Notes: generated by a model not told the origin, from the sequence alone. A stretch of 64,000 nt of DNA from Gallionella sp. (GCA_035654695.1 DASRWG010000001.1:7157-71156); one strand, 5' to 3'. Shown: positions 12,108-49,770, counted from the stretch's first letter. Program-made: numbers and translations.

Positions 12108-12674
12108 ATGATACACGCTGCCGTATCTCATATTGCCAATCAACTGAACCAGTTCCTGAAAAGGTCGTTCGACCTCAATGAGGATGTGGTTGTGCTATCC
12201 AACATCATGGAGCAGGACGGTACGCTGGCTCCCAATATCAATAACAAGCTGGTCGTGTTTCTGGTCAATATCGAGAAAGAAACAACCTCTTCGCGTCCGG
12301 GCAATCCGGGCAGTTTCGAGCGTTCCGCTTCGAGCTATCCGCCGGTGTATCTGAACCTGTATGTCATGGTTGCGGGGAATTTCGCTTGCAGCAATTACGC
12401 CGAGGCGCTCAAGTTTCTGTCGAACACGGTCAGCTTCTTCCAGCGACAACCGGTGTTCGATCATCAGGTGACTCCCGAGCTGGACAAGAGAATCAACAAA
12501 CTGGCGTTGGATATCGAGAACCTGAACATCCAGGACTTGAGCAGCCTGTGGGGGATATTGAGCGGGAAATACCAGCCGTCCATCTTGTACAAGGTCAGGA
12601 TGGTCTCATTCGATTCCGGAGATGTGATGAGCCAGCTTTCGCCGATCAAGGGATATCAGGGTTCGGTGACTTGA
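12108..12674 (+). CDS. DUF4255 / Afp16-Pvc16-like CIS tail terminator (cap) protein
   Basis: MIHAAVSHIANQLNQFL...LVVFLVNIEKE...PPVYLNLYVM...Y.EALKFLS...FFQ..PVF...LWGILSGKYQPSILYKVRMV. Confidence 0.9.
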   Translation: MIHAAVSHIANQLNQFLKRSFDLNEDVVVLSNIMEQDGTLAPNINNKLVVFLVNIEKETTSSRPGNPGSFERSASSYPPVYLNLYVMVAGNFACSNYAEALKFLSNTVSFFQRQPVFDHQVTPELDKRINKLALDIENLNIQDLSSLWGILSGKYQPSILYKVRMVSFDSGDVMSQLSPIKGYQGSVT

Positions 12675-12686
12675 GCCGGGGATGCC

Positions 12687-13547
12687 ATGGGAGCTTTCCG
12701 GCCATTGTTCAGCGTTTCCGTGGAGCATGGCTACTTCGCGGATGGCGCATGGAAGGGGCTGGATTTTGTCCCGACGCCGGCGACGATGAAGGTAATCAAC
12801 GGCGCGAACGTGCTGGTCAGGCCGACAAAGAACGGCGTGGCGGCGTTTTATGACGAGAGCTGGCTGGACGCGCTGCGGCTTTATGCGGAAGACGCGAACG
12901 GCGCGTTGTGTTTCAGCTTCAAGGTCTATGCAAAAGACCGGACGTTTGCGAATTACACCTCGCCTGCCACGCGTAGCGGAAACGATGTTCTGTACTTCGA
13001 TAACCGCGAAGGAGTTACTGATTTCGGCATCGGCAAGGTCCGCCTGAGCAAGGAAGATTCCGTGTCCGAAAAGGATTCCAGGGGTATCGACAGTTTGGTC
13101 GCAGAGGACATTCTTTGCGACAGGGACAGGCGGGTGCCGCCGGATTTTGTGGTGAGTGTCTGCGTGGCGCCCGGAGTGAGCGACGACACATGGCGGGCTT
13201 TGGATTGTTTCATCCGGTTCGATGCCAGACGGGCTTACTGGAAGTATTACCTGCTGGGGGGCATGAACAGGAGTAATCCCTTTATCGTCGATCTCGACAG
13301 CCGAGTGGAGTTCGAGTTTTGCGGCGAAGTGTTGTTGTTGGGAGACAGGCCGGCAAAGGTGTTCAGGTCGAAAGAACCAATCCCGGTGCTGGAGAAATCG
13401 GCTTGCCGGTTTCAGTTGCGGGAGCAGGGGCCCGGGACGGGGAAGGTGCTGGTCAAGCGCTTGCCGGTCGGCTCCGAAAGCAGGCTGGGCATGGAAGTGA
13501 TCGATGGCAAGCGCGAGATCGTCGCGGAAAGTTTTATCAATTATTGA
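12687..13547 (+). CDS. hypothetical CIS-associated protein between terminator and sheath genes
   Basis: 286-aa ORF in the operon (FRPLFSVSVEHGYF... and C-terminal ...YWKYYL...F.S.EPIP...FQL...LP). No function recognised. Confidence 0.75.
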   Translation: MGAFRPLFSVSVEHGYFADGAWKGLDFVPTPATMKVINGANVLVRPTKNGVAAFYDESWLDALRLYAEDANGALCFSFKVYAKDRTFANYTSPATRSGNDVLYFDNREGVTDFGIGKVRLSKEDSVSEKDSRGIDSLVAEDILCDRDRRVPPDFVVSVCVAPGVSDDTWRALDCFIRFDARRAYWKYYLLGGMNRSNPFIVDLDSRVEFEFCGEVLLLGDRPAKVFRSKEPIPVLEKSACRFQLREQGPGTGKVLVKRLPVGSESRLGMEVIDGKREIVAESFINY

Positions 13548-13633
13548 GTTGTTGATTGATGTTGGTGGTGCAAGTGTTTCAAGAGAGCAGGTTCGATTTA
13601 CGTTAGGTAAGTTAACTATTGAAAGGGGGCAAC

Positions 13634-15145
13634 ATGGGAGCTATGAAAACACCCGGCGTTTATATCGTCGAGAAGAGCGCCTTTCCGAACTCGGTCGTGG
13701 AAGTCGCAACAGCGGTGCCCGCATTTATCGGCTATACCGAAAAAGCGGACAACAAAGGCAAGTCGCTTAGCAATCAGCCTTGGCGGATTACGTCAATGGC
13801 CGAGTTCCAGAATTATTTCGGTTTCGGTCCTTCGGTGGAGTTCAGCCTGACCGAGGCGGCGACGCCGCCCGCGGCTCCGCCATCGATTTCCGTGGGCGGC
13901 AAGGACTACATGCTGGCGCAGTCGAAAGGAAAATATCTGCTGTACTACAGCATGATGCTGTTCTTCCAGAACGGCGGCGGGCCTTGCTACATCGTGTCGA
14001 TAGGCAACTACGGCGATGATGTGGCTATGGACAAGCTTACGGGCGGCATCGATCAGTTGGTCAAGGAGCAGGAACCCACCATCGTGGTGATACCGGATGC
14101 GGTCTTGCTGAAGCAGGCCGATTGCATCAGCGTCGAGCAGGCCATGCTGGATCACTGCGGCAACGTGATGAAGAACCGGGTGGCGATCTTGGATATTTCC
14201 GACGGTCATCGCAGCCGTCAGGATCCGGCTGGCGATCCGGTGGCTACCTTCCGCAATTCGCTGGGCATCAATTTCCTCGATTTCGGCATGGCCTACTATC
14301 CTTGGCTCAATACCACGATCGTCCAGGCGAAGGATTTGGCGTACTGGAATCTGGATAGCGCGAGCCAGACCTTGCTTCAGGGAATGCTGGAAGCCGAACT
14401 CAATATCGCGGCCCAACCGGCAGCCAAGGCCGAGCAGCTCCAGTCCATCGTCGATGGCATCGCCAAGACGGATGCAACGCCGCAAGACAAGGCGATGCTG
14501 AACAAGAGCCTGATCTCGCTCAGCCCGAGTTACAACATGATCCTGACGGACATGGCGGCCATGCTCAACCTGCTGCCTCCGGCTGCCGCCATGGCGGGCG
14601 TGTACACGATGGTGGACAACAATCGCGGGGTCTGGAAAGCACCGGCCAACGTCAGCCTGAATGCGGTGACTTCGCCGACCGTCAACATCACTCACGGCGA
14701 TCAAGAGGATCTGAACGTCACGCCGCAGGGCAAGTCGATCAACGCGATCCGTCCGTTCGTCGGCGAGGGCACGCTGGTATGGGGCGCGCGCACGCTGGAC
14801 GGCAATAGCCTCGACTGGCGCTATATCAACGTCCGCCGCACGATGATCATGCTCGAAGAGTCCATCCGCTTGGCTTCCAAGGCGTACGTGTTCGAGCCCA
14901 ACGTCGCGAATACCTGGGTCACCATCAAGAGCATGATCCGCAACTTCCTGACCGGTATCTGGAAGAAGGGCGGTCTGGCTGGCGCTGTGCCGGACGATGC
15001 GTTTGCCGTTTTCTGCGGTCTCGGAGAAACCATGACGCCGGAAGATATTCTGGAGGGCGTCTTGAGAGTGACGGTGCTGGTGGCGATCAGCCGTCCGGCC
15101 GAATTCATTGAGATCACCTTCCAGCAGCAGATGCAGAAGTCCTGA
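13634..15145 (+). CDS. contractile tail sheath protein (Afp2/3/4-like, single copy)
   Basis: KTPGVYIVE...VATAVPAFIGYT; YYPW; GVWKAPAN; VWGARTL; WRYINVRR; FEPN...TW; PAEFIEITF. Confidence 0.96.
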   Translation: MGAMKTPGVYIVEKSAFPNSVVEVATAVPAFIGYTEKADNKGKSLSNQPWRITSMAEFQNYFGFGPSVEFSLTEAATPPAAPPSISVGGKDYMLAQSKGKYLLYYSMMLFFQNGGGPCYIVSIGNYGDDVAMDKLTGGIDQLVKEQEPTIVVIPDAVLLKQADCISVEQAMLDHCGNVMKNRVAILDISDGHRSRQDPAGDPVATFRNSLGINFLDFGMAYYPWLNTTIVQAKDLAYWNLDSASQTLLQGMLEAELNIAAQPAAKAEQLQSIVDGIAKTDATPQDKAMLNKSLISLSPSYNMILTDMAAMLNLLPPAAAMAGVYTMVDNNRGVWKAPANVSLNAVTSPTVNITHGDQEDLNVTPQGKSINAIRPFVGEGTLVWGARTLDGNSLDWRYINVRRTMIMLEESIRLASKAYVFEPNVANTWVTIKSMIRNFLTGIWKKGGLAGAVPDDAFAVFCGLGETMTPEDILEGVLRVTVLVAISRPAEFIEITFQQQMQKS

Positions 15146-15208
15146 TCCGCAGTGCAGCCAGTTAACGCATCAACAACCATTTAACATTTTTATAGAGAGG
15201 AGTATGTC

Positions 15209-15667
15209 ATGGCAGATGACGGTTCCGCACAATCGGCGACAGTATGGCCCATGCCCAAGTTCTACTTCCAGGTGAAGTGGGATGCCAACGTGATGTCTTT
15301 CCAGGAAGTGTCCGGCCTGGATATCCAGTCGGAAGAAATTAAATACCGGCACGGCGACAGCCCGCAGTTCTCGGTCATCAAGATGCCGGGGATGAAGAAG
15401 TACGGCAACATCACCATGAAGAAGGGCATCTTCAAGGGAGACAACAAGTTCTGGGATTGGCTCAACCAGATCAAGATGAACACCATCAAGCGCGTTCCGG
15501 TCACCATCAGCCTGCTCGACGAGGCCGGTGCGCCCACGATGGTGTGGACGCTGGCGAACGCCTGGCCGACCAAGATCACCGGGACGGACCTCAAGTCGGA
15601 AGGCAACGAAGTGGCGGTCGAGTCCATCGAGATCGTCCACGAAGGCCTCACCATCGCCAACGGTTGA
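15209..15667 (+). CDS. tail tube protein 1 (T4 gp19/Afp1-like)
   Basis: WPMPKFYFQV...FQEVSGL...YRHG...KMPG..KYGNITMKKG...W.L.NAWPTK...NEVAVESIEIVHEGL. Confidence 0.95.
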   Translation: MADDGSAQSATVWPMPKFYFQVKWDANVMSFQEVSGLDIQSEEIKYRHGDSPQFSVIKMPGMKKYGNITMKKGIFKGDNKFWDWLNQIKMNTIKRVPVTISLLDEAGAPTMVWTLANAWPTKITGTDLKSEGNEVAVESIEIVHEGLTIANG

Positions 15668-15685
15668 TGATGCCGGCGTAGTCAT

Positions 15686-15716
15686 GGGGGAGGGGAAACC
15701 CTTCCCCGGTTTTTTG
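15686..15716 (+). terminator. intrinsic terminator-like hairpin between the two tube genes
   Basis: GGGGGAGGGG-AAA-CCCTTCCCC followed by GGTTTTTTG. Confidence 0.6.
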
Positions 15717-15746
15717 TAATTTCTGATTTTTGTCATCGACGAACCC

Positions 15747-16199
15747 ATGGTTGATTCCGCTTATCCGCTGCCGGCCTTTTATTTCAAGGTCGTGTTCGCG
15801 TCCTCGCAGGGGAATTCGGACACTTCTTTTCAGGAGGTGTCCGGCATTTCTTCCGAGATGGAAACCGAGCCGATAGTCGAGGGAGGCAACCAGTACACGC
15901 GGCAATTGCCGAAATCGCTCAAACATTCGAACCTGGTATTGAAGCGCGGCATCGCCGACATGAGTTCGCCGCTGGTCGTCTGGTGCCAGAAGGTGCTGGA
16001 AACGAATTTCATGGAGCCTATCGTGCCGACGCTGGTCAGCGTGTATTTGCTGAACGAAGAAGGAAATCCGTTGCGCGGATGGGAGTTCACCGACGCCTAT
16101 CCGGTCAAGTGGAATGTCGAGGCATTCAACTCGACGAAAAACGATGTGGCGATAGAAACGATCGAATTGAGTTACATGAGTTCTTCGCGGACTCTCTGA
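15747..16199 (+). CDS. tail tube protein 2 (Afp5-like)
   Basis: YPLPAFYFKV...FQEVSGI...EGGN...LP....SNLVLKRG...W.F..AYPVKW...N.VAIETIEL.Y. Confidence 0.93.
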   Translation: MVDSAYPLPAFYFKVVFASSQGNSDTSFQEVSGISSEMETEPIVEGGNQYTRQLPKSLKHSNLVLKRGIADMSSPLVVWCQKVLETNFMEPIVPTLVSVYLLNEEGNPLRGWEFTDAYPVKWNVEAFNSTKNDVAIETIELSYMSSSRTL

Positions 16200-16204: not shown

Positions 16205-16363
16205 ATGTCGATAGAGATAAGACAGATGGTGGTGAAGTCGAACGTGGTGCAACGCAGCACCCCGGACGAGGAAACCGACATCGAAGAAAACGGGAATCGG
16301 GCGATTCTCGAAGAATGCAAAAGGCTGATCCAGGAAGCCTTGCAAGAAATTAAGGAGAGATAA
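16205..16363 (+). CDS. small CIS protein, DUF5908/Afp6-like
   Basis: MSIEIRQMVVKSNV...ILEEC...QEIKER; 52 aa in the Afp6 position, with the characteristic N-terminal IEIR and C-terminal ER. Confidence 0.75.
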   Translation: MSIEIRQMVVKSNVVQRSTPDEETDIEENGNRAILEECKRLIQEALQEIKER

Positions 16364-17044
16364 TTGATCACCAAGCTGACGATCACTCCATGCAGTCTTG
16401 ACGATAAGGGCGATGTCACCGGCCCCAGGACCGGCGAGGCCTTTACGGTCAGACTGAACCCGTCGAATTACACGCGCAACTTCGAAATCACCTACAACAC
16501 CACCAAGGCGATGGGCGCGCCGGTGATGCAGCCGCGATTCAGCGGCGCGGGCGAGAAGAAGATGGATTTCGACATCGTCATGGACGGGACCGGCGTGGTT
16601 CCGCCGACCTCGGCGAATTCGACGGCCATCGATGTCGATACGCAACTGGGCGACCTGAGGAAGGTCGTCTATACGCTGGACGGGGAGGAGCACGAACCGA
16701 ATACCGTGATGCTGGTGTGGGGGAGTTTCAGTTTCGTCGGTAAGCTCAGCACGATGTCGGTCGAGTACACCCTGTTCAAGCCGACCGGGGATCCGCTGAG
16801 AGCGAAGGTGAAGCTGTCTTTCATCCAGTATGTCGGCCCGACGGAGGCGGCGAATACCGCCAATCTGCGTTCACCCGACCTGACCCATTCCGTGGATGTG
16901 CAGGCGGGCGATTCCTTGCCCCTGCTGTGTTTCCGCATCTACAAAAACAGCGGCTATTACCTGGAAGTCGCGAAGTTCAACGGCATCACCAATTTTCGAA
17001 ATATCAAGCCGGGCACGCGGCTGAATTTTCCGCCGTTAAGGTAA
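16364..17044 (+). CDS. Afp7-like tube initiator / LysM baseplate hub protein
   Basis: F.V.LNP..Y; LVWG...F.G.L....V.YTLF...G.PLRAKV.LSF; C-terminal LysM (SPDLTH.V.V.AGDSLPLLC..IY...YY.EVA..NGI.NFR.I.PG..L.FPP). Confidence 0.9.
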   Translation: MITKLTITPCSLDDKGDVTGPRTGEAFTVRLNPSNYTRNFEITYNTTKAMGAPVMQPRFSGAGEKKMDFDIVMDGTGVVPPTSANSTAIDVDTQLGDLRKVVYTLDGEEHEPNTVMLVWGSFSFVGKLSTMSVEYTLFKPTGDPLRAKVKLSFIQYVGPTEAANTANLRSPDLTHSVDVQAGDSLPLLCFRIYKNSGYYLEVAKFNGITNFRNIKPGTRLNFPPLR

Positions 17045-17050: not shown

Positions 17051-18838
17051 ATGGCGAGTTCACCGGCGATAGATGGCGGGGTTGTCAGGCTGTCCCTGTT
17101 CAGCGAGGGGACGGCCCTGCCCGGCACGGTGCAGGTCGTATCCGTGTCGGTCAGGAAGACCATCAACAAGATACCGGTGGCCGAGATCGTCGTGCTGGAC
17201 GGCGACATGCCGCAGAAGGATTTCCCGGTCAGCAATGCCGCCTATTTCAAACCCGGCGGCGCGATAAAAATCAACGCCGGATACGGCTCCGATGAGGAGA
17301 CCATTTTCGAGGGCATCGTCGTCAAGCACGGCATCAAGATCACCGGCGACAATTATTCCCGGCTGGTCGTCGAATGCCGCGACAAGGCCGTCGCGATGAC
17401 CATAGGCCGCAAGAACGCCAACTATGTCGATTCGAAAGACAGCGACATCATCACCAAGCTCATCGGCAATTGCAGCGGGCTCACCGCCGATGTGGGAGCT
17501 ACCGATACGCAGTACAAAGAGCTGGTGCAGTACTACTGCACGGACTGGGATTTCATGCTGTCGCGCGCCGAGGTCAATGGCTTGCTGGTGATCGTGGATG
17601 CCGCCAAGGTGAGCGTCAAGGCGCCTGCGACCGACGGCACGCCCCAGTTGAAAATCACTTACGGCAGCGACTTGCTGGAGTTCCACGCCAACATCGATGC
17701 CAGAAACCAGTTCTCCAAGGTCGAAGGCGTCTCGTGGGACGTGAAAAATCAGGCCATCGTGGAGCAGCAGGCGACGCCGAAGACGCTGAACGAGCAGGGC
17801 GACCTGACTTCTGCCACGCTGGCCAAGGTCATCGGGCTGAGCGCATTCCGTCTCCAGACCCCGGCCCCGCTGGAAAGCGCCGCGCTGAAGTCATGGGCCG
17901 ATGCGCAGCAGGTCAAGTCCGGGCTGGCCAGAGTGCAGGGGCGCATGCGCTTTCAGGGCAGCGCCAAGGCCAAGGCGGGCGAACTGATCGAGATCGAGGG
18001 CGTGGGCAACCGCTTCAACGGCAAGGTGTTCGTCAGTTCCGTCCATCATCAGGTGACCGACGGAAACTGGACTACGGAAGCCGAATTCGGCATGCCGCAC
18101 GACTGGTTTGCCGAGAACCGCGACCTGGTCGCGCCGCCCGCATCGGGCTTGCTGCCGGGAATCGAAGGGCTGCATGTCGGCGTGGTGAAGAAACTGGATG
18201 CCGATCCGGAAGGGCAGTACAAAGTTCAGGTTTCGATTCCCGTGTTGAAGGCGGAAACGGACGGCGTGTGGGCCAGGCTGATGCAGTTCTACGCGTCCGA
18301 CGGCATCGGCGCGTTCTTCGTGCCGGAGATCGGCGACGAGGTCGTGCTCGGCTATTTCAACAACGATCCTTCCAACCCGGTGATTCTGGGCAGCCTGTAC
18401 AGCAGCAAGCGCAAGCCGTCCTACGAATTGACCGCGGACAATTTCAAGAAAGCCATCGTCACCAAGAGCAAACTCACGCTCGAATTCGACGACGACAAGA
18501 AAATCATCACCATCGTCACGCCGGGAAAAAACCAGATCGTGATTAGCGACGACGGCAAGTCCATCCTGCTGAAGGACCAGACCGGCAATCAGGCCAAGCT
18601 CAGCGAGGATGGCATCCTGCTGGATAGCCCCAAGGACATCACCATCTCCGCCAAGGGCAAGGTCAGTATCTCGGCCACGGGCAATGTGGAGATCGAGTCC
18701 AAGGCCGACTTCAAGGGCGACGCGCTGAACATCACCCACACCGCAAAGACCGGTTTCACGGCCAAGGGCAATGCCAGCGCCGAAATTTCCGCATCGGGCC
18801 AGACGACCGTAAAGGGCGCGATGGTCATGATTAATTGA
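17051..18838 (+). CDS. VgrG/Afp8-like spike protein
   Basis: INKIPVAEIVVLDG; VQYYCTDWDFMLSRAEVNG; gp5 OB-fold WARL...YA..G.G.FF.PEIGDEV.LG...DP..PVILGSLY; C-terminal beta-helix repeats. Confidence 0.93.
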   Translation: MASSPAIDGGVVRLSLFSEGTALPGTVQVVSVSVRKTINKIPVAEIVVLDGDMPQKDFPVSNAAYFKPGGAIKINAGYGSDEETIFEGIVVKHGIKITGDNYSRLVVECRDKAVAMTIGRKNANYVDSKDSDIITKLIGNCSGLTADVGATDTQYKELVQYYCTDWDFMLSRAEVNGLLVIVDAAKVSVKAPATDGTPQLKITYGSDLLEFHANIDARNQFSKVEGVSWDVKNQAIVEQQATPKTLNEQGDLTSATLAKVIGLSAFRLQTPAPLESAALKSWADAQQVKSGLARVQGRMRFQGSAKAKAGELIEIEGVGNRFNGKVFVSSVHHQVTDGNWTTEAEFGMPHDWFAENRDLVAPPASGLLPGIEGLHVGVVKKLDADPEGQYKVQVSIPVLKAETDGVWARLMQFYASDGIGAFFVPEIGDEVVLGYFNNDPSNPVILGSLYSSKRKPSYELTADNFKKAIVTKSKLTLEFDDDKKIITIVTPGKNQIVISDDGKSILLKDQTGNQAKLSEDGILLDSPKDITISAKGKVSISATGNVEIESKADFKGDALNITHTAKTGFTAKGNASAEISASGQTTVKGAMVMIN

Positions 18839-18845: not shown

Positions 18846-19268
18846 ATGACGATGAGTGCCGATCAATCCTTTCTGGGCGCGGGCTGGGGATTCCCGCCCG
18901 AATTCAACCGCGATGCCGGGACGGTCCGGATGGTTCACGGCGCGGAGGATATCGACGAGAGCCTGCGCATCCTGATGGCCACCGTGCCCAAGGAGCGGGT
19001 CATGCAGCCCGCATACGGCTGCGGGCTGAAGCAACTGGTATTCGAAAGCATCAACGAAAGCACCCTGACGCTGATCCGGGATGCGATTGGGCGGGCCGTG
19101 CTTTATTTCGAGCCGCGGGTCGATCTGGAGGAGATCGAGATAGACGAAGAGCAGGCGCAAGAAGGCGTGCTGTTAATCAAACTCAACTACCGTGTCAGGA
19201 CGACGAACAGCAGAGCCAATCTGGTTTTCCCGTTCTATTTCCTGCAAGGCACTAACCTTTCCGCGTAA
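18846..19268 (+). CDS. gp25/GPW-like baseplate protein (Afp9-like)
   Basis: FLGAGWGFPPEF...DIDESL.IL..T...ERVMQP.YGC.L...FEPR....N..NLVFPFY...GT. Confidence 0.94.
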   Translation: MTMSADQSFLGAGWGFPPEFNRDAGTVRMVHGAEDIDESLRILMATVPKERVMQPAYGCGLKQLVFESINESTLTLIRDAIGRAVLYFEPRVDLEEIEIDEEQAQEGVLLIKLNYRVRTTNSRANLVFPFYFLQGTNLSA

Positions 19269-38516: not shown

Positions 38517-40145
38517 ATGCAACGAGTACAGAAACAAGGCAGCGAATCGGAAAACGCGCAACGCACCGCGCAAGCCAAATTTACGTCTTGGTCGCGCGAG
38601 AACGAGCGCGCGAATGCCATCGATGACAGCCCGGCGATGATCGCCCAGCGCAAGAAGCTCAACAGCTTGTTCGGCGGCGCGATACAACGACAGGGCGCGG
38701 AAGAAGAGATGCTGCAAGGAAAATTCGATGGCGTGCAGAGGGTAGAGGAAGAAGAGCCTCTGCAAGGAAAGTTCGAAACCGCACAACGCGTGGAAGAGGA
38801 AGAGCCGTTACAAGGAAAGTTCGATGTGGCTCAGCGAGTCGAAGAAGAAGAACCTTTGCAGGGGAAGTTTGAGGCGGTGCAGCGGGTAGAGGAAGAAGAG
38901 CCACTGCAAGGCAAATTCGAGACGGCCCAGCGCGTGGAGGATGAGGAACCTCTGCAAGGAAAGTTCGAAGCCGTGCAGCGAGTCGAAGAAGAGGAGCCGC
39001 TACAGGGAAAGTTTGAGGCAGCCTCATCCACCCAGTTGAAGGAAGAGGTCGCCAAGCCCAATAACACCGGCCTGCCGGACAATCTGAAGAGCGGCATAGA
39101 AAATCTTTCCGGCATGTCGATGGACAACGTCAAGGTCCACTACAACTCCTCGCAACCCGCGCAGCTCAACGCGTTGGCCTATGCGCAGGGTACCGACATC
39201 CATGTTGCACCCGGGCAGGAGCAACACCTGCCGCACGAAGCCTGGCATGTGGTGCAGCAGGCGCAGGGACGGGTGAAGCCTACCATGCAGATGAAGGAGG
39301 GCGTGCCGGTCAACGACGATAAGTCGCTGGAGCACGAGGCGGATGTGATGGGGGCGAAGGCGGCTTCAGTCGGAGTGGCGCAAGCAATGAACAAACTAAT
39401 CGAACCAAAGGTTGTTGGCTCTACCCCCTTTCAATGTAAGACTGAAATTGACAATAAATCAGTAGATCAAGCCTACCGTTCGGATGGTGATATATCTCAA
39501 CAAAGAATGGGCGTGGAAATGGAAGCATATCTAGATCCTTGGAATCCATTGCATGGAACTGAATCAGCCGCTTTCGACAGACATGGCATTTATCTTGATG
39601 AGGCATATAACGAAGGCAATGATGGTGCTACAGCCATGCATTTGTTGAATGCAAATTTAGGAGGGCTTGCTGTTGATGAAAATCTATTTCCCGGGCATAC
39701 AAATAAAAACGGACAACACCTGAAATCAGGTGAGACAGAGGTAAAGAACAAGGTGTTAACGTTGATGAATAATGGAAAGAAAGGATGGCGAGTATTTTAT
39801 AAGGTTAGATTTTCTCCGCCTTCAGTGCTTACGCCTGAGAACTTCACAACAGTACCTCTTCAAGTGCAGCATTGTTACGTGAGCCCAGAGGATCAAATGG
39901 TTCTGGACTGGGTAACGGTATCTGAAAAGCCTAATGTAGAGTTGGATGAGGCTGGCTGGAAAACTAGCACGAGCAAAGTCAGGAATAGAAGAGCAACACG
40001 GACGAGAAAATATCTGCATAAGAACACTGAAGGCGAAAGGGCAACTTTTGTAGAGCTCGTTAAGCATGAGGATGATCCAGATAGTGAGGCATTAAGATTC
40101 CACACTCATGTCGCACACGAAGACAAAGATGATTTGTTGAGTTAG
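38517..40145 (+). CDS. DUF4157 (eCIS core) effector 1 with N-terminal repeats and a predicted beta-beta-alpha-Me non-specific nuclease C-terminus
   Basis: [39 protein letters not shown]...[15 protein letters not shown] core; C-terminal [10 protein letters not shown]....NLFP....N..H....E..VK. AAGGAGG SD. Confidence 0.85.
38685..39023 (+). repeat. seven tandem 48-nt (16-aa) repeats [13 protein letters not shown][ED]xx
   Basis: One degenerate 17-aa unit plus six near-identical 16-aa units read from the translation. Confidence 0.95.
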
Positions 40146-43246: not shown

Positions 43247-44542
43247 ATGCAAAAAGCCGAAGCGCAACATAACCACGCGCAGCCCGCCGTGCGACAGGGC
43301 AAGGGCGCATCGCTCGAATCGCCGCAGGGCGAACGGATCGCGCAACTCGAAGCGATGGCCGAGAGCAGCCCGCAGGCAGGCAAGCTAGCTCAACTCGCGG
43401 TGATGGTCGATTCCAGTCCGGCGATGGCAGCGCAACGCAAGCTGATTGGGCAGGCACATGGCAGTCCAGCGATGACGGCTCAGAGCAAAGCTGTCAATGG
43501 TATCGCTCAGCGCGCCGAGACTCCGGCCAAGCCGAACAATACCGGCCTGCCGGACAACCTCAAGAGCGGTATCGAGTCGCTCTCCGGCATGTCGATGGAC
43601 AACGTCAAGGTGCATTACAACTCATCGCAGCCGGCGCAACTCAACGCGCTGGCCTATGCGCAGGGCACCGACATCCACGTCGCACCGGGGCAGGAACAGC
43701 ATCTGCCGCATGAGGCTTGGCATGTGGTGCAGCAGGCGCAGGGGAGGGTGAGGCCGACGATGCAGCTGAAGGATGGCGTGCCAGTCAACGACGATGCCGG
43801 GCTGGAGCACGAGGCGGATGTGATGGGAATGAAGGCACTTGAATCACGAAATGGTACTGAGGGAGCCGGCTTCAGCGTGGCGTCCAACCAGCCCCGCCAA
43901 TTGTTCAGTCCCAAATCAAGTGAATTTCCGGTACAGCGTATCGTGTATTTCGCGGACAACAATGGGGAATCTCCTGCATTGGCAGCTCCACCCCAAGGTG
44001 GGGTCGTATGGGTTAGCCCGCTTGGCGATGTAAACAATACGCTTTACGGGACTTCTGCACTTGCCAACCAGGCCGTGCGGGGGCTGCTCGGTGTTGGTGA
44101 CGCTGAGCCAACGGCAGAGGCGGAATGCTATGCAGGTCCCGCCCAGAATGGTCCATATTTTTACTGGTGGGATGATGATCAAGCGCCGACGACAGTGAAA
44201 ATAATGCCGACTCATACCCAAGACGGCACAAACCAGTTATATCGCTTCTCGAATACGGAGGTGTCCGTTTATACGCCTGTCGTGCACAACCATGCGGCCC
44301 AGATACAAGCAGAGAATTCTGGTGCTGCATGGGCAATTTCGGCCAATCCGGCGTTGCCGTACGTTCCTTACCCTAATGCATTGAATCACTACTTGCACAA
44401 ACCTGCAGTAGCAGGATCAATGAAACTCAAGCAAGAAGTCTCCCTGAAGTTAAAAACTGCATCGTCCAAGGGGGAGGACAAGACTTACGCAAAAGACACA
44501 TTCGAAAAGGCGGCCAAGAGTGGAGTTGCATCGCTTGTTTAA
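43247..44542 (+). CDS. DUF4157 effector 2 with an unrecognised C-terminal domain
   Basis: Same DUF4157 core (43529-43835, HEAWH), followed by an unrelated ~230-aa region. Confidence 0.85.
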   Translation: MQKAEAQHNHAQPAVRQGKGASLESPQGERIAQLEAMAESSPQAGKLAQLAVMVDSSPAMAAQRKLIGQAHGSPAMTAQSKAVNGIAQRAETPAKPNNTGLPDNLKSGIESLSGMSMDNVKVHYNSSQPAQLNALAYAQGTDIHVAPGQEQHLPHEAWHVVQQAQGRVRPTMQLKDGVPVNDDAGLEHEADVMGMKALESRNGTEGAGFSVASNQPRQLFSPKSSEFPVQRIVYFADNNGESPALAAPPQGGVVWVSPLGDVNNTLYGTSALANQAVRGLLGVGDAEPTAEAECYAGPAQNGPYFYWWDDDQAPTTVKIMPTHTQDGTNQLYRFSNTEVSVYTPVVHNHAAQIQAENSGAAWAISANPALPYVPYPNALNHYLHKPAVAGSMKLKQEVSLKLKTASSKGEDKTYAKDTFEKAAKSGVASLV

Positions 44543-44590: not shown

Positions 44591-46438
44591 ATGCCAAACA
44601 GTGCACGCGCAGCATTGCACCTGACCAACGATCCCATCATCTCTAAAAGCCAGAACGAGAGTCTGGCGCGGATGGTGCGGAACGTTCACGAGAAATGCTT
44701 TAAAGCGGGAGAGACGATCTACAAGGCGCATGCCGATGCCGACACGCTTTACCTGATCGAGAGCGGGACGGTGGAACTGGTCACGCCTGAGGGCAAGCGC
44801 GTGACGATGGACGGGACGCGCTTCGGTGAGGAGGCTGCGACGGATGTGCCTTGCTATCTTTCCGACGCCGTTGCGGTCACCGATGTGGTCGCGTTCAGCG
44901 TGCCGCGCACCAGCTTGATCGGGCTGAACCAGTACAACCCGGGACACAAGGCGGAGTTCTATTTTTCGCTGTTGGCGAATTTCGGCGGGGAGGAGGTGCG
45001 TCGCGCATCGACGGCGCAGTCCGCGCGCCACAAGCCGAAGGAGCGCGATGGCATCGAGGCGTTCGGTTGGGCGCTGGCGATCCTGATTCCGCTGGGGATC
45101 ATGATGTTCGCGGGCGACTGGGGCGTCGGGCGCGAGGTGAAGACCTTCCTCGCGATTTTCAGCGCGGCGATCGTGATGTGGGTGTTCGAGCTCGTCGATG
45201 AGTTCATCCCCGGATTGTTCGCGGTGCTGATGATCCTCGCGATGGGGCTCGCGCCGCCCAAGGTGGTGTTGGGCGGCTTCGCCTCCGACGGCTTCTTCAT
45301 GGCGATGAGCATTCTCGGGCTGGGCACCGTGGTGGTGTATTCCGGGCTGAGTTTCCGCTGCCTGTTGTGGCTGCTGCGCTACCTGCCCGGTACGAACATC
45401 GGACACAACTTCGGCCTGCTGTTCACAGGCTACCTGATTAATCCGGTGATCCCTTCGATCAACGCTCGCACGGTGATGATGGCGCCGTTCCTGATCGACA
45501 TGGTGGAGACGGTGAAATTCCATTTGCGCGGCAAGGCGGCGACGCGGCTGGCGATTGCGGCCTTTACCGGGGCGACGCTGTTCTCGGCGACTTTCCTGAC
45601 CAGCCGTTCGATCAACTTCGTGATCTACGGCATGCTGTCACCACAGGAGCAGCAGCATTTCTCGTGGATCTACTGGCTGTTCTCGACCTCGGTCGCGGCC
45701 ATTGCGATGCTGGCGTTGTACCTGATCGCGGTCAAGCTGATGTTCGGCAGCGCGGAGAAGCCACAATTGTCGAAGCAGCAGGTCAATGTCCAGATGCAGT
45801 TGCTGGGGAAAATCAAGCAGCGCGAGTGGGCCGCCATCGCCGGCATCGTGCTGTTTACCATCGGCATCGTCACCACCTCCATCCACAATATCCAGCCGCC
45901 GTGGATGGGCATGGCGATACTCTACGGTCTGCTGCTGTTCGGTTTCCTGAGCCGTAGCGAGTTCAAGGAGAAGACCGACTGGCCGGGACTGGTCTATCTC
46001 GGCACACTGATCGGCGTCATCGCTACGTTCAACTATCTCGGGCTGGACAAGTGGCTGACCGCCGAACTCTCAGTGCTGGGCGAGGTGTTGAGCAAGAGTT
46101 TCGGCCTGTTCGTCGCGCTGCTCTTCGTGGTGATCTTCGTGATGCGGCTGGCCTTCCCGAATACCGCGACCATTGCCATCTGCGCGACCATTTTCATGCC
46201 GGTTGCAAGCCAGGCCGGTGTGAATCCCTGGGTAATCGGCTTCATTCTGCTGCTGCTCGGCGACATGTGGGTCTTCCCCTACCAGTGCCCGCATTACCAG
46301 CAGTTCCAGGAACTGGTGCGCGAGAAGCGCATATACGACGAGGGGATGTTCCTCAAATTTAACATGCTGATGAATTTTGTCCGGCTGGCCGGTATTTATG
46401 CCGCGATTCCGTTCTGGGCTGCGCTGGGGTTGCTATGA
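44591..46438 (+). CDS. cyclic-nucleotide-binding-like domain fused to an SLC13/DASS-family permease
   Basis: F..GETIY.....AD.LYLIESG.V...FGEEA (cNMP fold), then ~12 hydrophobic helices with DASS-like signatures (IF..A..MW...,P...AR...M.P,...S...F.T....N). Confidence 0.82.
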   Translation: MPNSARAALHLTNDPIISKSQNESLARMVRNVHEKCFKAGETIYKAHADADTLYLIESGTVELVTPEGKRVTMDGTRFGEEAATDVPCYLSDAVAVTDVVAFSVPRTSLIGLNQYNPGHKAEFYFSLLANFGGEEVRRASTAQSARHKPKERDGIEAFGWALAILIPLGIMMFAGDWGVGREVKTFLAIFSAAIVMWVFELVDEFIPGLFAVLMILAMGLAPPKVVLGGFASDGFFMAMSILGLGTVVVYSGLSFRCLLWLLRYLPGTNIGHNFGLLFTGYLINPVIPSINARTVMMAPFLIDMVETVKFHLRGKAATRLAIAAFTGATLFSATFLTSRSINFVIYGMLSPQEQQHFSWIYWLFSTSVAAIAMLALYLIAVKLMFGSAEKPQLSKQQVNVQMQLLGKIKQREWAAIAGIVLFTIGIVTTSIHNIQPPWMGMAILYGLLLFGFLSRSEFKEKTDWPGLVYLGTLIGVIATFNYLGLDKWLTAELSVLGEVLSKSFGLFVALLFVVIFVMRLAFPNTATIAICATIFMPVASQAGVNPWVIGFILLLLGDMWVFPYQCPHYQQFQELVREKRIYDEGMFLKFNMLMNFVRLAGIYAAIPFWAALGLL

Positions 46439-47466
46439 CGAAAAAACTGAAAAACTGGCTGGTGGTCGCATTCCTGCTGCTGGTCGTCTTCCTGCTGTTC
46501 TGGTTCAAGGCGACGCAGCCCAGGGTGCTGGTGATACATAGCTACGACCCTGACTATGCATGGACGCGGGATGTCGATACCGGTCTCCATCGAGTGTTCG
46601 ATAGCAACCTGCACCATAAGGTCCAGTGGCACTACATGAACACCAAGAAACATCCTGACGCCGAATTCAAGCGCCGGGCGGGCATGCTCGCTACGCGTGA
46701 GATCGAGCGTTTTCGTCCCGACGTGATTATCGCGGTCGACGACGATGCGCAGAAATATGCAGTGAAGGAATACGCCAAAGACCCTAAGGTCAGGATCGTG
46801 TTCGGCGGCCTCAACGGTTCCGCAGTGCCATACAACTACCACCTCTCGAAGAACGCGACCGGTATCTACGAACGCAAGCCGCTCGGCAGCTTGCTCAGCA
46901 TGTTGTCCGAGGTGCGCGACGGGGCGGGAATGCCGCTCGGGAAACGCATCGTTCACATCGGGGATCGATCCGATTCCGTCATGGAAGACAGCAAGGCCAT
47001 CGAGTCCATGGACTGGACGCCATTCCGGCTGGTTGCCTCGATGCACGCCGGCACTCTGGACGAATGGAAGCGCGCCGTTCTGGAGGCTTCGGAAAAGGGC
47101 GACTTGATCCTCATCTCGAATTACCAGAATGTCCTGCGGCAGGACGGAAAAGACGGTTTCGTGCCGCCCGCCGAACTCATGGAGTGGACCGAAGCCAATT
47201 CCCGTATACCCGTGGTCGGGATGGGCGGCTTCATGGTGGAAGACGGCGGCATGCTCGCCGTGGGCGCTTCCGGCTTCGAACAGGGCGACGTGATCGCGCG
47301 CATGACCATGAGGATACTGGATGAGGAAATCAGTCCCGGCGACATTCCGCACGTCATGCCGCGCCAGTACCTGGTCTACATGCGCCAGGCGGTGATGGAG
47401 AAACGGGGGCTCAAGCTGCCGGATATCTACGAGGCGTTTTCGCGGGCGTCGAACAACTATCATTGA
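46435..47466 (+). CDS. membrane-anchored ABC-type substrate-binding-like (sensor-like) periplasmic protein
   Basis: N-terminal TM; RVLVIHSYDPDYAWT; PDVIIAVDDDAQ; IVFGG.N; PV.G...F.V..GG.L.V.....EQG...A. ATGA overlap with the permease. Confidence 0.78.
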   Translation: MTKKLKNWLVVAFLLLVVFLLFWFKATQPRVLVIHSYDPDYAWTRDVDTGLHRVFDSNLHHKVQWHYMNTKKHPDAEFKRRAGMLATREIERFRPDVIIAVDDDAQKYAVKEYAKDPKVRIVFGGLNGSAVPYNYHLSKNATGIYERKPLGSLLSMLSEVRDGAGMPLGKRIVHIGDRSDSVMEDSKAIESMDWTPFRLVASMHAGTLDEWKRAVLEASEKGDLILISNYQNVLRQDGKDGFVPPAELMEWTEANSRIPVVGMGGFMVEDGGMLAVGASGFEQGDVIARMTMRILDEEISPGDIPHVMPRQYLVYMRQAVMEKRGLKLPDIYEAFSRASNNYH

Positions 47467-47511
47467 AGATCAGTCCGCTTTCGCTAACGGGAGCATACGG
47501 GGGAGAGGTAT

Positions 47512-48960
47512 ATGCAAAAAGCCGAACCGCAACAAAAGCCAATTCAGAACCAATCCGCCCAGCGGCAGGGGCATGGCGTCTCGCTCGAATCTCCGCAGGG
47601 CGAACGGATCGCGCAACTCGAAGCGATGGCAGCGAGCAGTTCCCAGACGGGCAGGTTGGCGCAGCTCGCGGGGATGGCGAACACCAGCCCGCGCATGGCC
47701 GCGCAACGCAAGGCGATCCGCGCCATTCACAACAGTCCGAACGTGACCGCGCAGCGGCAACAGATCGACAGCCTTACCGGGGGAACCGCGCAGCGCAAGG
47801 AGGCGGAAGAGCCGCTGCAAGCAAAAGTCGCACAGCGCGAAGCCGCGCCTGTCAAACCGAATAACACCGGCCTGCCCGACAACCTCAAGTCCGGCATCGA
47901 GAATCTTTCCGGCATGTCCATGGACAACGTGAAGGTCCACTACAACTCATCGCAGCCTGCGCAACTCAATGCGCTGGCCTACGCGCAAGGGGCCGATATT
48001 CACGTTGCACCCGGACAGGAGCAGCACCTGCCGCATGAGGCCTGGCACGTGGTGCAGCAGGTGCAGGGGCGCGTGCAGCCGACGATGCAGATGAAGGAAG
48101 GAGTCCCGGTCAACGACGATGCAGGTCTGGAGCGCGAGGCGGATGTGATGGGGGCGAAAGCAGTCTCAGTTGGAGCGGTGCAAGCGAAACGATCAATCGA
48201 GTCTGCCCCCATTGATGCAAAACTTGACCTCATTAATACACCAGCTAGGAATCACGACTACAACCTCCAGTTATTTCACAACAATACCCATGCACCTGTT
48301 GTTCAGCGTATAGGTCCCAGCTATATTCCAAAGGAAGATGGACCCAATGCATTTATCGATCAAGCCCCGGCAACAGCAGGAGTAGTCTCCTTTGACAATG
48401 TCGCAGATGCATTTTATGCAGGATTACCGAGTGAACATGTCAGTGAAATTGAAATTATTGGTGGAATAGACACTTACGCCAATGATGCTGGAGGCGGTGA
48501 TGTTGTACGGACAGGAGACGTCAATCCGGTAATTGGACAAATTGATCACATCGTTCCACGCTCGCGTGGTGGTGGTACTTCATTTCGCAACGCGCAATTA
48601 GTGGATGCGCCAACAAATAATGCTAAAAACGATGCCTATCCTTGTCCAATCAGTAATCTCAACGGTACGCGGGTGTTTCTTGGAACATCCAAATGGAATA
48701 TGCCAGCAGGTACCATCCTTGCGACAGATTTCGCGTCGCAAAGAATACAAATTTTGGAAAATGCGCGTGTGCCAAAAAATCTGGGAGTCACATTGTATGA
48801 AACAGCCGGGGCCGGACAGGGGACGCAAATTACTGCTGAGACTCAGACTGCAGCGCGAAATCATTATGTACCGGAGAACGATACTGAACTTCAGTGGTTA
48901 AGCTACGACGAAGCACGCGCGAACGGACTTGCTCCAGGCGAAGGAGGACCGTTGGCCTAA
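47512..48960 (+). CDS. DUF4157 effector 3 with an HNH endonuclease motif
   Basis: DUF4157 core at 47854-48160; C-terminal QIDHIVPRSRGGGTSFRNAQLVDAPTNNAKND. Confidence 0.85.
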   Translation: MQKAEPQQKPIQNQSAQRQGHGVSLESPQGERIAQLEAMAASSSQTGRLAQLAGMANTSPRMAAQRKAIRAIHNSPNVTAQRQQIDSLTGGTAQRKEAEEPLQAKVAQREAAPVKPNNTGLPDNLKSGIENLSGMSMDNVKVHYNSSQPAQLNALAYAQGADIHVAPGQEQHLPHEAWHVVQQVQGRVQPTMQMKEGVPVNDDAGLEREADVMGAKAVSVGAVQAKRSIESAPIDAKLDLINTPARNHDYNLQLFHNNTHAPVVQRIGPSYIPKEDGPNAFIDQAPATAGVVSFDNVADAFYAGLPSEHVSEIEIIGGIDTYANDAGGGDVVRTGDVNPVIGQIDHIVPRSRGGGTSFRNAQLVDAPTNNAKNDAYPCPISNLNGTRVFLGTSKWNMPAGTILATDFASQRIQILENARVPKNLGVTLYETAGAGQGTQITAETQTAARNHYVPENDTELQWLSYDEARANGLAPGEGGPLA

Positions 48961-48987
48961 ATTGACGTTGAACTAAGCCGCTTCACA

Positions 48988-49021
48988 CGGTGGTTGGGGG
49001 AAACCAACCACCGCGTTGTTG
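48988..49021 (+). terminator. hairpin after effector 3
   Basis: CGGTGGTTGG-GGGAAA-CCAACCACCG, perfect 10-bp stem followed by CGTTGTTG. Confidence 0.6.
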
Positions 49022-49148
49022 TCTGTAAAAATCGATGGGGTCAGACTCCATTGAACGTGGCCAACAAAACGACAAAAATAACCAAGCGGCCTATCGATCC
49101 GATCATCTCCATCGATTCACGAGATTATTCAAGACAAGACTACATCAC

Positions 49149-49292
49149 ATGCAAAACAATCAAGAAAAACAAGTCAGGCTGCCATGCCCGAATTGCGGCA
49201 TACAGATTCAGGTTTGGGGTGCGCATCTGCTTTATGCGCAGACAATTCGTTGCGATGCATGCGGGGTGGAACTGGCGCTGGATAAGGAATAA
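49149..49292 (+). CDS. 47-aa zinc-ribbon-like small protein
   Basis: MQNNQEKQVRLPCPNCG...IRCDACGVELALDKE, two CxxC motifs. Confidence 0.55.
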   Translation: MQNNQEKQVRLPCPNCGIQIQVWGAHLLYAQTIRCDACGVELALDKE

Positions 49293-49380
49293 TCGGGTTC
49301 CGCGCTCGATGCGTTGGGAGATCGGATGACTGGGGCCGGACACCATTGATTCCGCGAAACAGAATTTTCAGGAGGGATAA

Positions 49381-49770
49381 ATGGGCCAGCAAGTCTGCAT
49401 GAACGCCGTGATGCAATGCAGTTTCGGCATGGCGCCGAGCTCGCTGATGGTGTTACCCAAGAACCGGGTGATGACGGGCAATGTGCCGGATGCAAACATC
49501 ATGGACAACATTCCGTTCGTTAATATTCTGCCGTTCGGGATGTGCCAGAGTTTGGCCAACCCCGCGGTGGCGGCGGCGACTGCGGCGGCTTTGGGGGTGT
49601 TGACGCCGATGCCATGCACGCCGATGACGGCTGCGCCCTGGGCACCGGGCTGCGCGACGGTGATGATCGCCAACATGCCCGCGCTGAACAATTCTTCCAA
49701 GCTGATGTGTTCGTTCGGCGGGGTGATCTCGATCAACTTTGCCGGGCAGGCGACGGTTAATATTCCGTGA
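49381..49770 (+). CDS. DUF4280 PAAR-like spike-tip protein
   Basis: A..QCSFG.APS.L.V; ANIMD..P..NI.PFG.C.S.ANP.VA; PC.P....PW.PG; L....KLMC..GG.I. GGAGG SD. Confidence 0.9.
   Translation: MGQQVCMNAVMQCSFGMAPSSLMVLPKNRVMTGNVPDANIMDNIPFVNILPFGMCQSLANPAVAAATAAALGVLTPMPCTPMTAAPWAPGCATVMIANMPALNNSSKLMCSFGGVISINFAGQATVNIP

Follow-up and report, generated by a model that had tools for sequence, protein, structure and literature searches.

What kind of machine is encoded by the long run of co-oriented genes at positions 12108-49770 of a 64,000-nucleotide stretch of Gallionella sp. DNA (GCA_035654695.1 DASRWG010000001.1:7157-71156; the whole stretch is hereafter the window), and do the unusual genes toward its downstream end belong to that machine? 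Gene calls and Pfam searches resolve the run into 23 genes, all on the + strand, which divide into a complete contractile injection system (CIS) and a block of accessory genes. The explanation that we consider probable is a complete injector of the SalCIS type (named for the system of Salmonella enterica subsp. salamae NCTC9936; Ejaz et al., Nat Commun 2026;17:5272; PDB 9RCE, 9R9H, 9R9N, and 9R9A), very long, associated with the inner membrane, and carried on an island bordered by tRNA-Pro. By homology, the core, the membrane protein, and the effectors are of known kinds; what differs is an extended, conserved accessory block, a catalytically degenerate domain in the membrane protein, and a spike tip of another family. 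SalCIS was described only in 2025-26. The host is a Gallionella-like betaproteobacterium, environmental and iron-oxidiser-like or chemolithotroph-like, and the SalCIS machine type extends to such bacteria.

Core structural genes and the type of machine

The single sheath protein bears most directly on the first part of the question. In a PDB sequence search, it matched SalCis2 (9R9H) end to end (64% identity, E value of 6.5e-210), followed by the sheaths of AlgoCIS (1e-106), tCIS (8e-98), and Afp/PVC (~1e-46 to 1e-54), with pyocin and T4 sheaths at 1e-8 to 1e-5. By homology, the machine is an intact CIS of the SalCIS type, a known kind, and a close relative of SalCIS itself. Its core genes are the following:

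12108..12674, + strand: Cis16a, tail terminator/cap (DUF4255); Pfam Pvc16_N, E 6.5e-35
12687..13547, + strand: candidate Cis16b, cap adaptor, 286 aa; PDB 9R9N_C ("SalCis16b - cap"), E 5.7e-4, C-terminal 120 aa
13634..15145, + strand: Cis2, single sheath protein; 9R9H as above, Pfam sheath C-terminal domain
15209..15667, + strand: Cis1, inner tube protein; Pfam Phage_T4_gp19, E 3.4e-49
15747..16199, + strand: Cis5, second tube protein (tube initiator); Pfam Phage_T4_gp19, E 2.2e-38
16205..16363, + strand: Cis6, spike plug (DUF5908), 52 aa, ATG start; Pfam DUF5908, E 2.5e-8
16364..17044, + strand: Cis7, baseplate hub/tube adaptor, 226 aa; Pfam CIS_tube, E 3.7e-42
17051..18838, + strand: Cis8, VgrG-like spike; Pfam Phage_base_V, E 4.7e-22, and Phage_GPD
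18846..19268, + strand: Cis9, gp25-like sheath initiator; Pfam GPW_gp25, E 1.5e-25
19278..23060, + strand: Cis11, gp6-like wedge/cage protein, 1260 aa; PDB 9RCE_A (SalCis11), E 5.9e-123
23057..23881, + strand: Cis13-like small baseplate fibre/anchor candidate, 274 aa; position, weak Foldseek matches
23940..26033, + strand: Cis12, gp6/7-like wedge, 697 aa; PDB Algo12 2.5e-67, tCIS 6.7e-67, SalCis12 2.9e-57
26026..33579, + strand: Cis14, tape-measure protein (TMP), 2517 aa; Pfam CIS_TMP, E 9e-121
33579..34964, + strand: Cis15, AAA+ ATPase; Pfam AAA, E 2.7e-30
49381..49770, + strand: DUF4280 protein, PAAR-like spike tip candidate; Pfam DUF4280, E 5.2e-35

By homology, these genes provide a baseplate and spike (Cis6, Cis7, Cis8, Cis9, Cis11, and Cis12, with the DUF4280 protein as the tip candidate), a one-protein sheath on a Cis1/Cis5 tube, a double cap, and the Cis15 ATPase, to which the membrane protein described below is added. 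SalCis11 (1323 aa) ranks first among PDB matches of Cis11, ahead of tCIS (4e-104) and AlgoCIS, with a partial match to TIGR02243, and the main aligned stretch begins only at residue 437/536 (1260 versus 1323 aa). Two assignments are tentative. The 286-aa protein may be Cis16b, 9R9N_C being its sole PDB sequence match of note and its place, second in the operon, being as in SalCIS. The 274-aa protein is a candidate for the fibre, and the sole fibre-like one of the locus: its gene is kept between those of Cis11 and Cis12 in nearly all related loci (412 homologues, all unnamed), it has no sequence match in PDB, and the weak top Foldseek matches of its AlphaFold2 (AF2) monomer (pLDDT 68) are the N-terminal parts of phage tailspikes and T4 gp9. 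Likewise, the DUF4280 protein has no sequence match in PDB, and its copies in related loci are 69-98% identical to it.

An initial annotation of the window had called the block a complete CIS of the "Afp/PVC type" rather than a canonical type VI secretion system (T6SS). All of the genes that it listed were recovered on the + strand where it had placed them, with the starts of Cis6 and the ATPase corrected to 16205 and 33579. Whereas the label "Afp/PVC" gives way to SalCIS on the strength of the sheath match, the accompanying view that a DUF4255-first, single-sheath order resembles AlgoCIS and T6SS subtype iv more than Afp agrees with the sheath E values. The 697-aa protein at 23940-26033, once read as the fibre, is a Cis12 wedge by its PDB matches. 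The "LysM hub" is indeed a CIS_tube hub; Pfam gives no LysM match at the thresholds used, though the C terminus is LysM-like by eye. The possibility that structural genes were pseudogenised is answered by the genes of 12108-49770, all of which are intact. Finally, a canonical T6SS (subtypes i to iii) is rejected, as the initial annotation had argued: the full CIS core is present, there is no TssJLM, TssBC pair, or ClpV among the genes of the 64-kb window, and the TMP and the Cis6 plug, both lacking in T6SS i to iii, are there.

Related loci were gathered by an ATPase-centred scan at one genome per species (80 loci), using tblastn with all window genes, and by a family census in which all open reading frames (ORFs) within ≤10.5 kb downstream of the ATPase were clustered; fractions of 82 below refer to this census (81 fetched loci plus the window, which is counted). 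The Cis15 ATPase is 55-96% identical in >80 CIS loci, and the order Cis11, 274-aa protein, Cis12, TMP, and ATPase is common to Pseudomonadota, Nitrospirota, Desulfobacterota, and Bacteroidota, extended by the membrane protein in the first three of these phyla. The broad core set of extracellular CIS (eCIS) of Chen 2019 and Geller 2021 is present in the window as sheath, tube, VgrG, gp25, baseplate J-like wedge, DUF4255, AAA, and DUF4157, domains that Geller 2021 lists as core. Set beside characterised systems, the locus compares as follows.

(i) SalCIS shares with the window a single sheath that is 64% identical, the Cis16a plus Cis16b double cap, the large Cis11 cage protein, Cis12, DUF4157 effector(s), the lack of a T6SS membrane complex, and a very long tail, which is expected here. 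Its particles are 600-700 nm long and 18 nm wide and lie bundled at the inner membrane, with no release detected; the authors propose an anchor made of Cis13 and the membrane protein, as well as a distinct cluster of related operons (PMC13266070), whose definition includes a trimeric SalCis13-like protein and a Cis11 with an extended domain IV. Taking that cluster as defined there, with sheath grouping from pairwise scores, we find its sheath, its membrane protein, its double cap (Cis16b weakly), and, as a domain-level match, its DUF4157/HExxH effector. The window differs in that all of its genes are co-oriented, whereas the ATPase and effectors are divergent in SalCIS; its tip is a DUF4280 protein at the far end of the locus, from another family than the SalCIS tip protein; it has three effectors rather than two, with unlike C termini; and it adds a methyltransferase, an RCC1 protein, a transporter with a cyclic nucleotide monophosphate (cNMP)-binding domain, and a substrate-binding protein (SBP), in an environmental betaproteobacterial host.

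(ii) AlgoCIS of Algoriphagus machipongonensis (Xu et al., Nat Microbiol 2022; PDB 7ADZ/7AEB) has the DUF4255-first operon, single sheath, double cap, Cis11/Cis12 cage, and HExxH effectors in common with the window and, among PDB relatives, ranks second for the sheath (1e-106) and first for Cis12 (2.5e-67). Unlike the machine predicted here, it is a released extracellular particle of ordinary length, and the Bacteroidota loci scanned are without a membrane-protein homologue.

(iii) The tCIS of Anabaena (Weiss et al., Nat Microbiol 2022; PDB 7B5H) resembles it in its membrane-anchored mode and in its sheath, Cis11, and Cis12 (8e-98, 4e-104, and 7e-67) but is anchored to thylakoids by extensions of baseplate proteins and lacks a homologue of the membrane protein whose domain resembles glycoside hydrolase family 18 (GH18).

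(iv) T6SS subtype iv (Amoebophilus asiaticus) and the Aureispira CIS, which we compared by description only, are cytoplasmic, inner-membrane-contacting, phage-tail-like injectors without TssJLM, and share baseplate geometry and Cis13-like proteins with SalCIS (PMC13266070). They differ in belonging to a Bacteroidota lineage without the window's membrane-protein family.

(v) Afp (Serratia entomophila) and PVC (Photorhabdus) share the core parts list (Afp1-16 nomenclature), the tape measure, the ATPase, and 3'-end toxins, but differ in their three sheath paralogues, single cap, and long adenovirus-like fibres, in a terminator gene that comes last, in released particles of ~110 nm, and in far lower sheath similarity (~1e-46 to 1e-54).

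Tape-measure modules and predicted length

The CIS_TMP profile covers only the conserved N- and C-terminal ends of the 2517-aa TMP. The stretch between them reads ABB-AB-AB-ABB-AB, made up of five A modules of ~150-175 aa and seven B modules of ~120 aa. Its two blocks of ABB form, the first and the fourth, are 84% identical at the nucleotide level over 1273 nt and therefore point to a recent duplication of ~1150 aa. Module number varies among relatives (six AB units in one Gallionella metagenome-assembled genome [MAG]; one A and eight B in a Burkholderiaceae MAG), and TMP length in the lineage runs from ~1000 to >2787 aa, so that 2517 aa is at the high end yet typical. By the phage-tail rule of thumb, an alpha-helical tape measure spans 1.5 Å per residue. 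At that rate the TMP would reach up to ~380 nm, a figure that is uncalibrated against SalCIS, and a tape measure of duplicated modules predicts a very long particle. Differences in module number among such close relatives offer a natural series for tests of CIS length control.

An integral membrane protein whose GH18-like domain is degenerate

Directly after the ATPase lies the gene of the membrane protein:

34973..37846, + strand: homologue of the SalCIS integral membrane protein, 957 aa; PDB 9R9A, E 1.2e-19, residues 543-948

The 9R9A protein (called SalCis19 in bioRxiv 10.1101/2025.06.01.657177 and SalCis20 in PMC13266070) is a homodimer with a SleL-like periplasmic domain (PMC13266070). 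The window protein has a signal-like N terminus of Sec type and three C-terminal transmembrane (TM) helices; its periplasmic domain is GH18/SleL-like, PG_binding_1 gives a weak match to the protein, and its hydrophobic segments (one N-terminal, three C-terminal) are laid out as in the SalCIS counterpart. A homologue follows the ATPase immediately in 42 of the 82 loci, every one of them non-Bacteroidota. Searches of a large protein database returned close relatives (47-92% identity) and did not reach SalCis19.

The canonical GH18 catalytic motif is DGxDxDxE (DxxDxDxE). At the corresponding position the window protein reads DGITLYFS, the consensus of 50 homologues is DGVTLYFD, and SalCIS has DGITLDID; Pfam Glyco_hydro_18 matches the window protein at an E value of 0.13 only, starting at this motif. 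The catalytic motif is thus not matched, the Gallionella copies being without any acidic motif residue. Because the acidic residues are missing, the periplasmic domain would bind peptidoglycan or act as a scaffold rather than cut it, and the "hydrolase" may be a binding module.

Effectors

Three genes, which the initial annotation had called polymorphic effectors, encode standard DUF4157 (eCIS_core) toxins, as judged from their domains:

38517..40145, + strand: DUF4157 effector 1; Pfam eCIS_core, E 6.7e-9; HEAWH motif
43247..44542, + strand: DUF4157 effector 2; Pfam eCIS_core, E 2e-8; C terminus with no family assignment
47512..48960, + strand: DUF4157 effector 3, with a C-terminal HNH nuclease domain; eCIS_core 1.1e-8, HNH_4 8.6e-5

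Their N-terminal ~200 aa, which include HEAWH, are 62-70% identical, and their C termini are unrelated; a conserved N terminus with varied toxin C termini is the architecture of eCIS-associated toxins (Geller 2021). Ahead of the DUF4157 domain, residues 77-156 of effector 1 (38745-39000) hold five perfect and several degenerate 16-aa tandem repeats ending in (E/D)xxQRV, in place of which effectors 2 and 3 carry a single related leader. The C-terminal domain of effector 1 is weakly nuclease-like (Endonuclea_NS_2 at an E value of 0.038 only). No immunity-like gene follows any of the three. DUF4157 effectors occur in 41 of the 82 loci. The conserved SalCIS effector is the DUF4157/HExxH protein according to the preprint (10.1101/2025.06.01.657177), and in the paper SalCgo2 is conserved and DUF4157 resides in SalCgo1 (PMC13266070).

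Accessory genes without a characterised counterpart

Whether the remaining genes belong to the machine is the second part of the question. The initial annotation could not match the combination of genes at this locus to a characterised system; its core, membrane protein, and DUF4157 effectors do match SalCIS, which leaves the following genes unmatched, the first of them absent from the earlier list:

37843..38457, + strand: class I S-adenosylmethionine (SAM) methyltransferase, 204 aa; Pfam Methyltransf_25/31/12
40294..43167, + strand: exported RCC1-repeat protein, 957 aa, 13-14 RCC1 repeats; Pfam WD40_RLD, E 1.5e-190
44591..46438, + strand: transporter of the DASS/CitMHS/DctM (ion-transporter) superfamily; Pfam Na_sulph_symp 1.3e-27, CitMHS 8e-14
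46435..47466, + strand: membrane-anchored periplasmic SBP (PF04392); Pfam ABC_sub_bind, E 2.6e-6, N-terminal TM segment

The methyltransferase, the RCC1 protein, and the transporter/SBP pair are the only genes of the locus without a characterised counterpart and have never been studied; literature searches for links between CIS and a methyltransferase, RCC1, a transporter, or Gallionella found nothing relevant. The ~80 related loci reveal genes that travel with the machine yet are absent from the Salmonella operon, and the locus scans bear out the expectation that the accessory genes co-occur with CIS loci in other genomes. Close orthologues reside in Gallionella, Rhodocyclaceae, Burkholderiales, and Zetaproteobacteria MAGs. 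The methyltransferase (across phyla), the RCC1 protein, and the transporter/SBP pair are candidates for the missing anchoring or triggering functions.

The start of the methyltransferase gene overlaps the stop of the membrane-protein gene (ATGA). Homologues are found in 24 of the 82 loci, in CIS loci of several phyla; of 381 homologues in all, the best 120 are 58-94% identical, and four of five sampled for context lie in CIS loci, with the fifth alone. In Pelobacter propionicus the order is TMP, AAA, a 752-aa protein, methyltransferase, and, further on, eCIS_core; in a Chloroflexi MAG it is AAA, a protein with a weak GH18 match, and methyltransferase; on the other two contigs, TPR and dCache proteins intervene. 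The AF2 model (pLDDT 89) is nearest in fold to small-molecule methyltransferases (ChlM, NodS, and natural-product and phosphoethanolamine N-methyltransferases), which do not indicate a substrate. The enzyme goes unmentioned in the SalCIS papers and eCIS surveys searched. By its conservation and context, the methyltransferase is a conserved, translationally coupled, and unexplained partner of the ATPase/membrane-protein pair. As a separate observation, two metagenome/MAG contigs (L186 and L188) carry a TPR protein, a dCache_1/MCP-like periplasmic sensor, and a 366-aa protein between membrane protein and methyltransferase, a slot equivalent to the position held by other envelope proteins in the window.

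The RCC1 protein combines a Sec-type signal (an N-terminal hydrophobic segment), two RCC1-like propellers with a weak Ig-like match between them, and a Pro-rich tail. An RCC1-centred genome scan returned 79 loci. The six closest, at 57-85% identity, align near full length except for L109, which a contig end truncates; without exception they are CIS loci, in which the genes run AAA, membrane protein, methyltransferase, effector, and RCC1. Two come from Gallionella, and one each from Rhodocyclaceae, Burkholderiaceae, Burkholderiales, and a Zetaproteobacteria MAG. The remaining 73 encode generic RCC1 proteins whose best aligned segments are 29-52% identical, with no CIS structural genes nearby; one alone (L137) has a weak DUF4280-like match. 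A seventh CIS-linked copy lies in a Nitrospirota CIS locus (L011). In the ATPase-centred census, RCC1 proteins occur in 3 of the 82 loci.

The transporter has an N-terminal cNMP_binding domain (E value of 3.4e-12) and many TM segments, and it is paired with the SBP in every related locus with room for both. The pair lies between effector genes in Gallionella, downstream of the membrane protein in L034, and, in a Kuenenia MAG, at a distance of 7 kb from a sheath gene. On three metagenome contigs (L190-L192), it sits inside the CIS structural operon, between the two tube genes (tube1, DUF4157 effector, 151-aa ORF, transporter, SBP, tube2, DUF5908, Cis7, VgrG, gp25, Cis11, and onward), and in a beta-proteobacterial MAG (L094, 12852-21599), as well as in L091, it is separated by ~5 kb from a canonical T6SS end (ClpV, VgrG, a MORN protein, a DUF4280 protein 74% identical to that of the window, and a SPOR protein). 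A link of the pair to contractile systems is suggested by these neighbourhoods but not proven. We also observed, directly upstream of the pair in L190 (307-4244), a 1161-aa DUF4157 effector with the overlapping 151-aa ORF; effector and pair may be mobile as one cassette. In L094 and L091, an FkbM-type methyltransferase and a TPR protein stand between the pair and the T6SS end.

Selection was gauged as dN/dS (the ratio of nonsynonymous to synonymous substitution rates) between the window and two Gallionella MAGs:

DUF4280: 0.04-0.06
ATPase: 0.05-0.07
Transporter: 0.10-0.11
Methyltransferase: 0.12-0.16
Membrane protein: 0.14-0.18
SBP: 0.15-0.21
RCC1: 0.19-0.22

All accessory genes tested are under purifying selection (0.04-0.22). 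There is also weak evidence that the locus is expressed in relatives: metatranscriptome assemblies from sediment, soil, and wetland hold contigs 85-99% identical to it, densest on the sheath and tube genes, and some pieces are near-identical, with 3 mismatches over 190 nt of the transporter gene and 1 over 156 nt of the SBP gene. The RCC1 signal in these assemblies was left unused because generic RCC1 repeats confound it.

Part of the ~15-kb accessory block (the transporter/SBP pair, perhaps RCC1) could instead be unrelated cargo that travels with effector cassettes. The characterised SalCIS operon is without these genes: its 18 ORFs include no methyltransferase, RCC1 protein, or transporter, which are therefore not needed to build the particle. 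In addition, RCC1 proteins are rare in the ATPase-centred census, about half of the transporter/SBP loci with usable flanks have no CIS genes, and the pair is always beside variable effector genes, which are recombination hot spots. However, the pair stands at differing positions by contractile systems in independent lineages (between tube genes in L190-L192, beside a canonical T6SS end in L094, and near a sheath gene in L096), all six close RCC1 orthologue loci, from four taxa, are CIS loci, and the genes of the block are tightly spaced on one strand and under purifying selection. On balance, we think cargo rather unlikely as an explanation for these genes.

Proposed mode of action and its alternatives

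The 2517-aa TMP, lengthened by duplication of A and B modules, would set a tube and sheath several hundred nanometres long. The particle would assemble in the cytoplasm and contact the inner membrane through the Cis13-like protein together with the membrane protein, whose periplasmic domain would hold on to peptidoglycan; contraction would then drive the spike and the three DUF4157 effectors, one of them an HNH nuclease, out into a neighbouring cell. The exported RCC1 propeller protein and the cNMP-binding transporter/SBP pair are envelope proteins restricted to certain lineages and most likely modulate anchoring, target contact, or firing. This mode of action (anchored versus released) and the roles given to the methyltransferase, RCC1 protein, and transporter/SBP pair are proposed from sequence.

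Several points weigh against the proposal, in addition to the SalCIS gene content and the CIS-free transporter/SBP loci just described. The Cis13 assignment is weak (fold matches at E values of ~2e-3 with low TM-scores), the Cis16b match reaches only 6e-4, and the DUF4280 protein does not match the SalCIS tip protein in sequence. For SalCIS too, membrane association is no more than a model, with the orientation of anchoring unresolved there (PMC13266070), and the transcripts are assembled metatranscriptome contigs, which may include carried-over DNA.

Among whole-machine alternatives, a classical eCIS in the mode of Afp, PVC, and AlgoCIS, releasing free particles by lysis and using the membrane protein for release rather than anchoring, fares best, and we regard it as unlikely. 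It fits the full core set (including Cis6, the TMP, the ATPase, and DUF4157 effectors), the lack of a T6SS membrane complex in the window, and the position of AlgoCIS as next-closest solved relative, and the SalCIS authors allow that release may need activation conditions not yet found (PMC13266070). It is at odds with the absence from the locus of a holin/endolysin cassette and of a long Afp13-type fibre, with the missing GH18 catalytic residues of the membrane protein, which make lytic activity doubtful, and with a particle of several hundred nanometres, which is atypical for a released eCIS; SalCIS release, moreover, went undetected, with particles at the inner membrane (PMC13266070).

We judge it very unlikely that the machine is a cytoplasmic CIS acting on its own producer, in stress-induced cell death or development as in Streptomyces. 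The sheath matches entries 8bl4 and 8bky, which we take to be those of the Streptomyces CIS, at ~1e-42, far below SalCis2, and a PAAR-like tip and spike are retained. Three diversified toxin C termini on a conserved N-terminal module are, in addition, the usual signature of inter-cellular conflict (Geller 2021). What speaks for self-action is the lack of immunity genes after the three effectors, together with the report that SalCIS is expressed without secretion and with division arrested, and its authors raise a domesticated or defensive role (PMC13266070). A defective prophage tail or R-type tailocin, to which the phage-tail-like sheath, tube, and baseplate genes on a tRNA-bordered island might point, is effectively refuted by gene content: head, replication, integrase, and lysis genes are all absent, the Cis15 ATPase, Cis6 plug, and DUF4157 effectors are CIS markers lacking in phages and pyocins, and pyocin and T4 sheaths match only distantly.

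Within the preferred reading of an inner-membrane-associated SalCIS-type injector, a bolder idea, to which we give little credence at present, is that such loci encode an overlooked second layer of function, an envelope module in which the membrane protein, the coupled small-molecule-type methyltransferase, and interchangeable extracytoplasmic sensor-like proteins would make anchoring or firing respond to an outside ligand or second messenger. The sensor-like proteins would, just as speculatively, be the double RCC1 propeller and the cNMP-binding, SBP-dependent transporter here and dCache and TPR proteins in other lineages. If true, a contractile injection system would for the first time be seen to be gated by a ligand or by cNMP, and a new class of SBP-dependent secondary transporter would be defined.

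Genomic island, flanks, and minor observations

Throughout 12108-49770, intergenic gaps are -8 to +148 nt, with the single exception of 420 nt ahead of the last gene, and several neighbouring genes overlap by ATGA/TGATG; G+C content of the window is ~59%. The following features border the locus or lie in its gaps:

10952..11028, + strand: tRNA-Pro(GGG), island left border; ARAGORN, Rfam tRNA 59.7 bits
11740..11766, unstranded: perfect 11-nt inverted repeat CATAGATATTT-N5-AAATATCTATG, read in the sequence
49149..49292, + strand: doubtful 47-aa zinc-ribbon-like ORF (CPNCG...CDACG; two CxxC pairs), read in the sequence
49953..49980, + strand: 28-nt copy of the tRNA-Pro 3' end, 25/28 identical, island right border

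The copy of the tRNA 3' end, the best tRNA match in the rest of the window (score 22, versus a shuffle maximum of 13), is positioned just past the DUF4280 gene and ahead of surE. The tRNA gene and this copy bracket the locus, which therefore lies on an island of ~38.9 kb (11029-49980); no integrase is visible in it. Upstream of the first CIS gene is a gene-free, AT-rich leader of 1.1 kb that holds the inverted repeat, each arm of which (CATAGATATTT and AAATATCTATG) occurs once in the window. The repeat may be an operator; promoter and terminator sites in the leader were no more frequent than in shuffled sequence. The 47-aa ORF inside the 420-nt gap before DUF4280 has no homologue in any related locus retrieved and is perhaps not a gene, and the 111-aa ORF at 48994-49329 that had been proposed earlier is unsupported, with no family match.

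Both flanks consist of housekeeping genes: dnaB, tRNA-Val, thrS, infC, rplT, pheST, ihfA, a MerR-family gene, and tRNA-Pro upstream, and surE, pcm, nlpD, and a UvrD-type helicase gene downstream, where 56548-61997 holds a MASE1 histidine kinase and an ANTAR response regulator and, after these, type IV minor pilins, one of them ComP-like (DNA uptake). The genes of 56548-61997 are unrelated to the CIS.

Among relatives, the census also yielded a 391-aa protein family downstream of the ATPase in 9 of the 82 loci. Seven Bacteroidota loci without the membrane protein (L056 at 11435-14905 and six others) have TrkA_N/RyR-domain and TIR-domain proteins downstream of the ATPase, and other Bacteroidota relatives have an nSTAND1-WD40 NTPase there. 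The nearest loci of all are in Gallionella MAGs (76-96% amino-acid identity over the accessory block). Orthologues of the membrane protein, methyltransferase, DUF4280 protein, effector, and RCC1 protein are present in a Zetaproteobacteria MAG (L116) at 44-70% amino-acid identity, a likeness that fits island exchange between iron-oxidising lineages, as we presume both this lineage and that of the window to be.

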